Shown: positions 40,060 to 42,317 of the stretch, one piece after another
How the letters are laid out: every line of letters begins with the position of its first letter
How positions within the stretch are numbered: position 1 is the first letter of the stretch
Source of the DNA: Enterobacteria phage XTG1
DNA: 64,000 bases
Sequence record: KT184316.1
Reading direction: 5' to 3' (one strand)
Position numbers and translations under genes: made by a program
Notes under the pieces: model-generated
Seen by the model: only the letters and a program-made list of their open reading frames with translations
Databases searched by the model: none
What the model was told of the DNA's origin: nothing

Positions 40060-40608
40060 ATGAAGAAATTGATTCTAGGTTTGTGCTTAATGTTTACAGC
40101 ACAATTATCTTATGCAGTTGACTGCCCAGAGCTATCAATTAGCCAAAAAGTAAACATGTTAAAAGCTTACCAGTATGGTGAGAACAACATGGGTAAAGGT
40201 TGGGGTATGACTCTAGCTGCTATAGCCTTACAAGAGTCAGAGTTAGGTCTGAAGGTAGAGAATAAAAAGACCCATGACTATGGTATTTTCCAGAATCACT
40301 TGAAGACTGTTGTAAAGCGTAACAAAATCAGTCCTAATGTGGCTAAAAAGAAACTCTTAAAAGATTTTGATTATGCCGCTAAAGAAACACATAAAGAGCT
40401 TGAGTTTTGGACAAAGGTGCATGGTCACCCAAAGTCAAAGAAGACTTTACAAAAAGTTTTAGCATCATATAATGCTGGGTATTCGTACAGAATCCCTAAA
40501 GCTAAGAAATACTCTCAAGATGTCTATAACAATATGAAAGTTATCGCTCAATGTGAATTTGCAACAAACATTTCTAAGGTAAATCATGAAAAAATTAAGA
40601 AAGTCTGA
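40060..40608 (+). CDS. Secreted lytic transglycosylase (SLT-domain)
   Basis: Signal peptide MKKLILGLCLMFTAQLSYA; catalytic-region motif AIALQESELG…YGIFQNH (E-S…G-[LI]-[FM]-Q). Confidence 0.6.
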   Translation: MKKLILGLCLMFTAQLSYAVDCPELSISQKVNMLKAYQYGENNMGKGWGMTLAAIALQESELGLKVENKKTHDYGIFQNHLKTVVKRNKISPNVAKKKLLKDFDYAAKETHKELEFWTKVHGHPKSKKTLQKVLASYNAGYSYRIPKAKKYSQDVYNNMKVIAQCEFATNISKVNHEKIKKV

Positions 40609-41281
40609 TGAAGTCCTGTGCCACGCTTATGACTTGCATCCTCATGAGTTAGGTCTTGATTCCTGTGTATGGACTCCAGAACAGTGCAGAGATTTTGAAG
40701 ACACTGCAAGAGAGGTTGTATGTTCACTTGAAGAGTTCCACACATCAGAACCCATTGTGAACGTTGTGGACAAAGAGACTGGACAAACTATAGGTGTAAG
40801 GCGTGATAGTTTAGTGATAGTCAATAAAGACCTTGTAGAAAAAGGTAACCTCATCTTAGCAGATATTGATGGTGTTCTTACAAATTTTAATCACGAAGAT
40901 TGCTCAACGGAATTGACTGATGGGTCATTCTCACAGTACACTAATCTTCTTGATTCTGTAAGAGCAAAACCAACATATGTTTTCAACATTATTGATGCAA
41001 TTGCAAATCATGCAGCAGTTGGACTCTTGACAGCAAGAGGTGAATCTCAGAGAATACCTACTGAGATGTTTTTAAGGCACAATATAGAGCATGATTACTT
41101 GCTTTTTATGCGTGGTTTTGGAACTAACTCTATAAGTGCAGAAAGTTTGAAAGTGAGGATGATTCAGTCTTGCATTCTTCCTTACTTTAATATAGTATGC
41201 TTTATAGAAGATACAGAGAAGAATGTTCAGAAGGTAAACAGAATCCTTCCACACATTAAAACCATGTTAGTTAAACATTGA
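40586..41281 (+). CDS. HAD-superfamily hydrolase-like protein (tentative)
   Basis: LILADIDGVLTNF resembles HAD motif I (DxDG[TV]). Confidence 0.4.
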   Translation: MKKLRKSDEVLCHAYDLHPHELGLDSCVWTPEQCRDFEDTAREVVCSLEEFHTSEPIVNVVDKETGQTIGVRRDSLVIVNKDLVEKGNLILADIDGVLTNFNHEDCSTELTDGSFSQYTNLLDSVRAKPTYVFNIIDAIANHAAVGLLTARGESQRIPTEMFLRHNIEHDYLLFMRGFGTNSISAESLKVRMIQSCILPYFNIVCFIEDTEKNVQKVNRILPHIKTMLVKH

Positions 41282-41292
41282 GAGAAGAACTT

Positions 41293-41757
41293 ATGAACAA
41301 TATCATTACGGTAGCACTGGACGATACGGCAAACAAATCTGAAGTAGTTCGTAAAATGATTCAAGGTAACTTTGAAGGTAAAATTTTCCGTGCTGTTAAT
41401 GTAAAAGCTGATGGCAGCATTCGTGAATATCGTGCATTGTTGAACGTTAAGAAGCACGTAAAAGGTGTTGGTTCAACGACTGCACACAAAGAAAACCTGA
41501 TGACTATCTATGATATGGGTAAGGCTTCAGAGTTAGGTGCTGAAGGTATCGTTAAAGAAGGTGCTCCGTATCGCTCTTTCAATCTGGAAACTACCCTTAT
41601 GCTTTCCTTTACAAGTGGTTCCAAAACAATCACTTATCTCTTTACTGATGCTGCAACGGTATCTGCTATTAAGGATAGCACTGTCAAAGCTGGCGTAGTT
41701 GCTGCTGCAAAAGCTTCTTCGATGGCTGCGAATATCCTTGCTAAAGTCCTCGGTTAA
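41293..41757 (+). CDS. Hypothetical protein
   Basis: Start moved to ATG 41293 (track start is TTG); SD agagaag. Confidence 0.45.
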   Translation: MNNIITVALDDTANKSEVVRKMIQGNFEGKIFRAVNVKADGSIREYRALLNVKKHVKGVGSTTAHKENLMTIYDMGKASELGAEGIVKEGAPYRSFNLETTLMLSFTSGSKTITYLFTDAATVSAIKDSTVKAGVVAAAKASSMAANILAKVLG

Positions 41758-41768
41758 GGTTAAGATAC

Positions 41769-41791
41769 AGGCTCCTTCGGGAGCCTTTTTC
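41769..41791 (+). terminator. Intrinsic terminator
   Basis: aggctcc-ttcg-ggagcct + TTTTT. Confidence 0.6.
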
Positions 41792-41809
41792 ATTTCAGGA
41801 GATTGTTAA

Positions 41810-42157
41810 ATGACATTTAAAGAGTTCTGTCAAGCTACTTTCATAATTGTTTTCTTAGTTGGGACAGGTGTCTGGGGAGGATACTCTTACAGAGACTACC
41901 AAGTTGCTGAAACTGAGCTAAATAATGAGAAACTAATAAGTGTTGCCAAAGATGCTTATCAGGAAGGTTTAGCCACACTCAGCACCAATTACAAAAATGA
42001 TTTGAAAGATGTGCTTGCTAAGAATAAGCACACAAAAGAGGTACTAACGTATGAAAAAACTAAGCCAGAGTTTTATAATGTTTGTGTTACTGATAATTAT
42101 GTCAGGGTGTTCAACGAACAAAGTGAACAGTACATTCAAAAACTCCCAAGTAAGTGA
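41810..42157 (+). CDS. Inner-membrane spanin-like protein (Rz-like)
   Basis: 115 aa; N-terminal TM helix (FIIVFLVGTGVWGG) then helical periplasmic region; 3' part overlaps a lipoprotein gene in another frame. Confidence 0.45.
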   Translation: MTFKEFCQATFIIVFLVGTGVWGGYSYRDYQVAETELNNEKLISVAKDAYQEGLATLSTNYKNDLKDVLAKNKHTKEVLTYEKTKPEFYNVCVTDNYVRVFNEQSEQYIQKLPSK

Positions 42158-42317
42158 GAGTGATAAGTACACTCAAGAAGATTCAAGATTTACTATCAAA
42201 GGTAATACTGGTAGTGATGTGGCAGCAGCCCTTGAGTTCTATCGTGATGGATTTTACCAGTGCACAATCAAAGCTAATAACCTTATTGATATGATTTTAT
42301 TAGGGAATAAGCAGTAA
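42051..42317 (+). CDS. Outer-membrane lipoprotein, spanin-like (Rz1-like), overlapping the upstream gene
   Basis: 88 aa; lipoprotein signal peptide with lipobox LLIIMSGC; starts 107 nt before the upstream stop in a different frame. Confidence 0.45.
   Translation: MKKLSQSFIMFVLLIIMSGCSTNKVNSTFKNSQVSESDKYTQEDSRFTIKGNTGSDVAAALEFYRDGFYQCTIKANNLIDMILLGNKQ

Follow-up and report, generated by a model that had tools for sequence, protein, structure and literature searches.

The lysis genes of the Felix O1-like phages have been described as scattered and their spanins as two-component systems of the overlapped kind, and it is against these descriptions that the present locus is best read. Kongari et al. 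(2018) catalogued Felix01, FO1a and UAB_phi87 under 'Overlapped' two-component spanins, the genome announcement of phage Moogle, which remarks that lysis genes are scattered in Felix O1-like phages, names a spanin for each of the two membranes besides an endolysin and a putative holin, and the spanins of this group were treated again in a comparative paper of 2021. In GenBank both an inner-membrane spanin (i-spanin) and one of the outer membrane (o-spanin) are annotated at exactly the locus considered here in the records of heid, JLBYU32, Pr103Blw, Moogle and others. Close to the spanin genes lies a gene for a secreted protein with an SLT domain, a homolog of Vs.1 of phage T4; the similarity of Vs.1 to SLT was remarked upon by Nolan et al. 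(2006), and that remark was all that turned up in the literature on vs.1, with no functional study and no assigned T4 function. We analysed these three genes, which lie between positions 40060 and 42317 of a 64,000-nucleotide stretch of Enterobacteria phage XTG1 (KT184316.1), the whole of which is referred to below as the window.

On nucleotide comparison the window is assigned to a Felix O1-like (Felixounavirus) virulent myophage of E. coli/Salmonella, because positions 39900-42700 are 99.3% identical to Enterobacteria phage KhF1 and because rIIA and rIIB lie directly upstream of the locus. The genomes of wV8, heid, JLBYU32 and dozens more Felixounavirus phages are 95-99% identical to the same region, and in 244 phage records at least 80% of this query was covered at one place. 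We put at roughly 85% the probability that the locus holds a Felixounavirus two-component spanin and, separate from it, a Vs.1-like accessory periplasmic transglycosylase. An earlier reading of the DNA (the original prediction) had proposed an overlapped i-spanin/o-spanin pair, a signal-peptide protein with an SLT domain and a distant T4-type lysozyme; all three open reading frames of the locus, and the endolysin gene, were found where it had placed them. The three genes of the locus are as follows.

41810-42157, + strand: predicted i-spanin, 115 amino acids (PHROG 1152; lineage alignment; ratio of nonsynonymous to synonymous change, pN/pS; GenBank i-spanin of heid, JLBYU32 and Pr103Blw).
42051-42317, + strand, +1 frame: predicted o-spanin, 88-amino-acid precursor (lipobox; PHROG 4180/456; conservation; pN/pS).
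40060-40608, + strand: predicted Vs.1-like secreted lytic transglycosylase of GH23/SLT fold, 182 amino acids (motifs; AlphaFold2 (AF2)/Foldseek; T4 Vs.1 homology).

The genes at 41810-42157 and 42051-42317 very probably encode a functional spanin pair. This identification follows from the PHROG match, the pairing in six lineages including a lysis cassette, the selection on two frames, the catalogue of Kongari et al. and the GenBank annotation, and on the same grounds the overlapped architecture of the original prediction is upheld. The i-spanin matches PHROG 1152 'Rz-like spanin' with E = 1.4e-41; the best family of the o-spanin is PHROG 4180 (E = 2e-50), which carries no assigned function, and PHROG 456 'Rz-like spanin' is matched more weakly (E = 8e-5). 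The sole hydrophobic segment of the i-spanin is N-terminal, at residues ~6-24 (Kyte-Doolittle 1.62; the transmembrane segment is placed at ~6-26), a layout common to all six homologs, and this single segment would place the protein in an N-in/C-out orientation. The o-spanin gene shares 107 nucleotides with the 3' end of the i-spanin gene in the +1 frame and is preceded by the Shine-Dalgarno sequence AAGAGG 9 nucleotides upstream of its start at 42051. The N-terminus of its product reads MKKLSQSFIMFVLLIIMSG-C20-S and conforms to a PROSITE-style lipoprotein rule, with the lipobox I-M-S-G-C, the lipidation residue Cys20 and, at position +2, a serine in accordance with outer-membrane sorting (the rule being a residue other than Asp). 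The mature o-spanin is 69 residues long and holds one further conserved cysteine, C71, while the i-spanin holds C92; both are invariant across the six lineages, so that at least one periplasmic cysteine is present, as in 507 of the 528 spanin pairs surveyed by Kongari et al. (2018), and one conserved periplasmic cysteine in each partner fits the general disulfide rule of these authors. The spanin-prediction rules to which the original prediction had referred are thus borne out for the transmembrane segment, the lipobox and the cysteine content, as is the overlapped gene arrangement.

Homologs of the i-spanin were located by tblastn in 406 phage records, from which one representative per lineage was taken for comparison, the six lineages being Felixounavirus, Mooglevirus, Kuravirus phiEco32, the P2-like Yersinia phage vB_YenM_324, Kolesnikvirus phiEa21-4 and Pectobacterium phage Arno162. 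Identity of the i-spanin is 95-100% across Felixounavirus records and 77% in Moogle, with the same overlap and the same neighbouring genes, and falls to 26-37% in the phiEco32-like podophages, the P2-like Yersinia phage, the Erwinia Kolesnikvirus and Arno162. A +1-frame open reading frame with a lipobox and Cys-Ser begins within the 3' part of the i-spanin gene in every one of the six; the lipoprotein rule holds for five of the o-spanin homologs, the sixth having MSGC with Asn at -4, and the residue at +2 is Ser in the five mature o-spanins scored, with the sixth also reading Cys-Ser. In both proteins it is the C-terminal domain in which invariant residues were found, namely E82, F88, N90, C92, Y97, F101 and N102 of the i-spanin, and G54, C71, N76 and L78 of the o-spanin within the consensus ALEFYRDxYxECAIxxNGLID. 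In vB_YenM_324 a holin and then a peptidase-type endolysin immediately precede the homologous pair, the whole forming a classical lysis cassette. To judge from these alignments, the recurrence of the overlapped lipoprotein frame in six lineages is more than chance.

Selection was measured over eight Felixounavirus, Suspvirus and Mooglevirus sequences. In the segment occupied by the i-spanin gene only, pN/pS was 0.19 in the i frame, compared with control-frame values of 0.90 and 1.32, and in the segment occupied by the o-spanin gene only it was 0.19 in the o frame as against 1.65 and 1.86. Within the 107-nucleotide overlap the synonymous rate dropped to 0.10-0.13 in both frames, from 0.58-0.68, and nucleotide divergence from Moogle was 9% in the overlap versus 25-27% in the flanks. 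The pN/pS values together with the suppressed synonymous change are the signature expected of two translated frames, both of which thus appear to be expressed. The original prediction had held that it would fail if the lipoprotein frame were not translated, and the pN/pS values and the constraint in the overlap speak against such a lack of translation as far as sequence data can.

The third gene, at 40060-40608, probably encodes an exported and active muralytic enzyme, and the SLT domain and signal peptide that had been claimed for it are corroborated by its motifs and by a GH23 fold. The N-terminus, MKKLILGLCLMFTAQLSYA|VD, displays a basic n-region, a hydrophobic core and an S-Y-A small-x-small cleavage site, and by rule the signal peptide is assigned to residues 1-19 as MKK / LILGLCLMFTAQL / SYA|V, with a maximum 10-residue Kyte-Doolittle value of 2.58. 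Three SLT motifs are present: E59-S60, with the catalytic residue, G75-I-F-Q78 and S136-Y-N-A-G140. No variation was seen in the 13 closest homologs at E59, G75, Q78, S136, Y137, N138, G140 and Y151, while S60 and A139 reach at least 90% conservation, and extending the alignment to T4 Vs.1 and remoter members leaves the motifs in place. An AF2 model built with 13 homologs reached a mean confidence score (pLDDT) of 84, with 92-98 in most 10-residue blocks of the core, and its top Foldseek matches in the PDB are all GH23 proteins, namely g-type lysozymes, a Ralstonia GH23 chitinase, EtgA, Cj0843, MltF, Slt70 and phiKZ gp144; the comparison indicates the goose-lysozyme-like alpha-helical fold. 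In a tblastn search SLT homologs were present in 2,139 phage records and, beyond Ounavirinae, these were mostly T4-like phages (vs.1), along with Vi1-like phages (Kuttervirus) and large Vibrio and Aeromonas phages. The same search matched vs.1 of T4, T6, RB43 and others, and T4 Vs.1 (181 amino acids, with a signal peptide beginning MRKALLAGLLAISMMAHS) aligns over its full length with 31% identity over 174 columns (E = 2e-16). By sequence, then, 'putative lysin / SLT', as the gene is called in Felix O1-like phages, is a member of the T4 Vs.1 family.

Several results weigh against this reading of the locus. Architecture and context are what the case for spanin function is drawn from; in all 69 residues of the mature o-spanin there is not one proline, unlike in lambda Rz1; and for the probably helical periplasmic region of the i-spanin, where a helical or coiled-coil character is expected, a low-confidence, single-sequence AF2 model (mean pLDDT 52.6) has helices spanning 27-37, 40-55 and 59-72, then short strands within 78-101. 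No similarity of the pair to PseT.3/PseT.2 of T4 was detectable by pairwise BLASTP, in which no alignment was better than E = 0.1 and the o-spanin match was confined to the signal peptide, and membership of that family was rejected. On the side of expression, a sigma-70 scan gave no convincing promoter ahead of the spanin unit, which starts immediately behind a terminator; for the T4 late-promoter motif TATAAATA there are 3 sites in the 64 kb versus 3.9 expected, none of them near the spanin or SLT genes. As to the SLT protein, the sequence from the window scores just below the gathering threshold of Pfam SLT (PF01464), with 19.9 versus 21.3 bits (E = 5.6e-4), in a family of which all 10 members examined match at E <= 0.1, the best at E = 8e-12; searches of PDB sequences with the protein and with the family profile gave nothing significant; and the chemistry of a transglycosylase is indistinguishable here from that of a goose-type lysozyme, a hydrolase, g-type lysozymes having the same fold.

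Gene structure, export and lipidation signals, conservation between lineages and selection on two frames were observed directly, and the manner in which the pair would act can be set out by analogy with lambda Rz/Rz1 and T4 PseT.3/PseT.2, from which complex formation and membrane fusion are extrapolated. The i-spanin would be anchored in the inner membrane by its N-terminal transmembrane helix, and the o-spanin, translated from the +1-frame overlapped gene, would be exported, lipidated on Cys20 and sorted to the outer membrane with Ser at +2. The C-terminal domains of the two proteins, each with one conserved cysteine, would bind each other and so bridge the periplasm, and once the endolysin had removed the peptidoglycan the complex would fuse the inner and outer membranes, thereby completing lysis. 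The SLT protein, which has a cleavable Sec signal peptide and whose gene shares with a phosphatase-like one a separate, terminator-bounded unit, is most likely an accessory periplasmic lytic transglycosylase and not the endolysin; whether it contributes to lysis at all we consider doubtful.

The other lysis genes of the window, one of them putative, and a second lipoprotein gene are the following.

58217-58681, - strand: endolysin of the T4-lysozyme type, 154 amino acids (PHROG 7, E = 3.8e-58).
3168-3539, + strand: putative holin, 123 amino acids (PHROG 4038, no assigned function; annotation in Pr103Blw).
10572-10832, - strand: second small lipoprotein gene, 86 amino acids (MNSNRRSVMWKVVIALGVIFLSG-C, lipobox LSGC; PHROG 902, no assigned function).

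The endolysin gene is on the opposite strand, and 15.9 kb separate it from the o-spanin gene's end, in agreement with the distance of about 16 kb that had been given for a T4-type lysozyme. With lysis genes at about 3 kb (the putative holin), 42 kb and 58 kb of the window, the predicted dispersal of lysis functions is likewise borne out, and has already been published for Felix O1-like phages. The holin candidate came only from the annotation of Pr103Blw, no small membrane protein in the PHROG scan having matched a family named holin; its product has one N-terminal transmembrane segment and corresponds to the 'putative holin' of Pr103Blw in position and length, beside thymidylate synthase. The C-terminal part of the same product gives a weak match to an Rz-like spanin PHROG (E = 0.0096). 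The lipoprotein gene at 10572-10832 is not paired with a transmembrane protein and could encode a lipoprotein of the superinfection-exclusion type.

Around the locus itself, the following features were recorded.

36199-36375, + strand: 58-amino-acid open reading frame just upstream of rIIA (PHROG 3931, no assigned function).
36404-38770: rIIA, upstream of the SLT gene (PHROG scan).
38850-39959: rIIB, directly upstream of the SLT unit (PHROG scan).
39973-39996, + strand: intrinsic-terminator-like hairpin after rIIB, marking the start of the unit of SLT, phosphatase-like and hypothetical genes.
40023-40028: perfect TATAAT upstream of the SLT gene (sequence).
40586-41281, + strand: gene labelled 'polynucleotide kinase' (PHROG 3970; HAD-type DIDGV at residue 93, no Walker A).
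41769-41786, + strand: terminator-like hairpin with T-run, dividing the SLT unit from the spanin unit.
43314-44099, + strand: macro-domain (Tk.4-like, 'phosphatase') gene downstream of the spanin pair (also, under our handles, L005 2966-3406 and L007 2995-3777).

The SLT gene, the phosphatase-like gene and a hypothetical gene thus form a three-gene unit bracketed by hairpins, and the spanin unit starts after the second of these, which is conserved in Moogle, EcSzw-2, Sf15 and JLBYU32; in ESh19 it is replaced by a different sequence containing TATAAT. The ribosome-binding site of the i-spanin gene is within ~10 nucleotides of this strong hairpin, with no recognisable promoter between them (41769-41809), and transcription of the spanin unit by read-through, or from a promoter overlapping the hairpin, is possible. 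The product of 40586-41281 is probably a phosphatase-only protein, and its kinase label looks wrong from the motifs present; as a homolog of T4 PseT it was rejected, there being no BLAST similarity and no Walker A and only the HAD-type DIDGV motif. In phiEco32 and phiEa21-4 a macro-domain gene stands immediately after the spanin pair, and in T4 tk.4 adjoins vs and vs.1, which makes this a recurring linkage. In the product of 36199-36375 a CxxC...CxxC cysteine cluster comes after an N-terminal transmembrane segment.

Other roles for the SLT protein have to be weighed against that of an accessory enzyme. It is unlikely, in our view, to be a second, Sec-exported endolysin that is preloaded in the periplasm and released when the holin collapses the membrane potential; on that reading the original prediction would have been right to count it among the lysis functions. 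Periplasmic preloading and activation on collapse of the membrane potential were shown for Campylobacter Fletchervirus F352 Lys and for Oenococcus fOg44 Lys44, and F352 Lys, which needs both Sec and the holin, is of the same architecture and size (182 versus 188 amino acids for the XTG1 and F352 proteins, respectively); moreover, the SLT catalytic motifs are intact and the gene is syntenic with the spanins in Ounavirinae, being 1.2 kb upstream of them here and ~2.5 kb in Erwinia phage Prophecy. However, the protein has no similarity to F352 Lys beyond the signal peptide, for which reason it was rejected as a homolog and retained as an analog only, a canonical cytoplasmic endolysin is already present, and the SLT gene belongs to a transcription unit other than that of the spanins. 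T4 e mutants, furthermore, fail to lyse although vs.1 is intact, so that Vs.1 is not sufficient as an endolysin in that phage. The role of accessory periplasmic transglycosylase is therefore ranked above that of second endolysin. A paper on a C600M2 'lysin' was set aside as a source on the SLT protein, as it concerns the true endolysin.

It is similarly improbable that Vs.1-like enzymes serve not lysis but, as a widespread periplasmic factor, the remodelling of the host sacculus during infection. The signal peptide and catalytic motifs of these proteins are conserved across Felix O1-like, T4-like, Vi1-like and jumbo phages, and if the proposal were true such remodelling might license spanin bridging, adapt lysis to the highly cross-linked walls of stationary-phase cells, or alter muropeptide signalling. 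Somewhat less probable still is a non-lytic 'space-making' transglycosylase of the VirB1, EtgA or FlgJ type, which would open the sacculus locally for a phage structure that spans the envelope, for example for the threading of spanins, or remodel the wall: the Foldseek match to EtgA is in keeping with the idea, but in T4 vs.1 and the spanin genes are >70 kb apart, and the spanins of lambda and T4 work in E. coli from a lambda background without a Vs.1-like enzyme.

Two further proposals have very little to commend them. Many phage SLT domains are virion-associated, and T7 gp16 and phi29 gp13 are among the weaker structural matches, yet a virion-borne, wall-piercing enzyme acting at infection in the manner of T7 gp16 or phiKZ gp181 is scarcely credible for a small, single-domain protein whose cleavable Sec signal peptide, found family-wide including T4 Vs.1, would direct it to the periplasm and away from cytoplasmic virion assembly, and the cryo-electron microscopy paper on the Felixounavirus Bas63 mentions a transglycosylase once only, for an unrelated bacteriocin, and no lysozyme. 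Equally far-fetched is a superinfection-exclusion or receptor-blocking role for the overlapped lipoprotein, like that of T5 Llp or Cor and with the transmembrane protein unrelated, since the lack of a function for PHROG 4180 and of proline in the mature protein, which would suit it, is set against a pairing, constant over six lineages (a lysis cassette being one of the cases), with homologs of that transmembrane protein through an identically placed +1 overlap, conservation that resides in a C-terminal domain with one cysteine in each partner, the PHROG 456 match and publication as an o-spanin.

For the spanin pair itself, the comparison of records bears mainly on annotation. Only with the start at 42051 does the product have a signal peptide and the gene a Shine-Dalgarno sequence. 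In the records of heid and Pr103Blw the o-spanin begins at Met18 (MSGC...), and in those of EcSzw-2 and Sf15 after the lipobox, so that the export signal is lost in all four; phi32_38 of phiEco32 and gene 025 of vB_YenM_324 are truncated likewise, and no o-spanin is annotated in the records of ESh19 and Arno162. The calls concerned are, under our handles:

L001 3700-3918, L003 3700-3921, L016 1005-1211, L018 1014-1211, L005 2793-2966, L006 2793-2981, L017 and L008: mis-started or omitted o-spanin (record comparison).

One paper credits a Felixounavirus with 'only the i-spanin', which probably reflects this artefact of o-spanin annotation. The o-spanin is wrongly started or missing in many public records of Felixounavirus, Mooglevirus and Kuravirus phages, which are in use for biocontrol of Salmonella and E. 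coli, and the comparative data that fix the start at 42051 could serve to correct these records.

Compared with the overlapped spanins of heid, JLBYU32, Pr103Blw and Moogle, the XTG1 pair consists of the same genes and differs in nothing of substance except the annotated starts. Publications and GenBank records already cover the spanin pair, the overlap of its genes and the scattering of the lysis genes, and as regards the spanin arrangement the original prediction is a rediscovery with nothing new: it was correct but ordinary, and what interest is left attaches to what the Vs.1 family does. Lambda Rz/Rz1 resembles the XTG1 pair in combining a type II inner-membrane protein with an outer-membrane lipoprotein from the +1 frame of the same DNA, in having periplasmic cysteines for intermolecular disulfides, and in the role of disrupting the outer membrane after removal of the peptidoglycan, but the XTG1 genes are overlapped and not embedded, the o-spanin is without a proline-rich region and the PHROG family is another. 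The mature form of lambda Rz1 has ~40 residues, so that the XTG1 o-spanin is the longer. XTG1 and T4 are both large, virulent myophages in which the lysis genes are dispersed and rIIA and rIIB form a pair; both have an o-spanin without a proline-rich region and a spanin pair near a gene labelled 'polynucleotide kinase', although this pseT-spanin synteny is weak because that gene product has neither BLAST similarity to T4 PseT nor a Walker A motif. PseT.3/PseT.2 differs in belonging to the 'separated' class (Kongari et al. 2018), only 4 nucleotides being common at the junction in the T4 record, and in its periplasmic cysteines, with none in the i-spanin and two in the o-spanin as opposed to one in each for XTG1. 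By analogy, the XTG1 pair would function like both lambda Rz/Rz1 and T4 PseT.3/PseT.2 while belonging to neither family.

For the SLT protein, the closest tested system by architecture is F352 Lys, with a signal peptide and an SLT domain in ~185 amino acids and a phage whose lysis genes are also dispersed; it is Sec-exported and holin-activated, and was the only experimentally tested example of this architecture found, but it is the sole endolysin of its phage, while XTG1 also has an endolysin of the T4-lysozyme type. The most distant homologs, deposited as Campylobacter coli, were rejected as bacterial: the contig concerned (ACBEZJ010000004.1 of GCA_053226485.1, our L009; 214,766 bp) carries genes for a phiKZ-type chimallin and a Vs.1-like SLT protein and looks like the genome of a nucleus-forming jumbo phage, not a bacterial chromosome. 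T4 Vs.1 is alike in length (181 versus 182 amino acids), in the N-terminal signal peptide and in the E-S, G-x-F-Q-N and S-Y-N-x-G motifs; the two differ in that T4 vs.1 lies by regB and vs and the XTG1 gene by rIIB and the phosphatase-like gene, and in the cysteine pair C22 and C165, which Felix O1-type SLT proteins carry and T4 Vs.1 does not. Through this family a predicted secreted, peptidoglycan-cleaving enzyme is present in about 2,100 phage records, and T4 or the BASEL Felixounaviruses would allow it to be studied cheaply and tractably. The feature as a whole is a spanin pair known from Felix O1-like phages, accompanied by one member of Vs.1, a family that is known yet uncharacterised.

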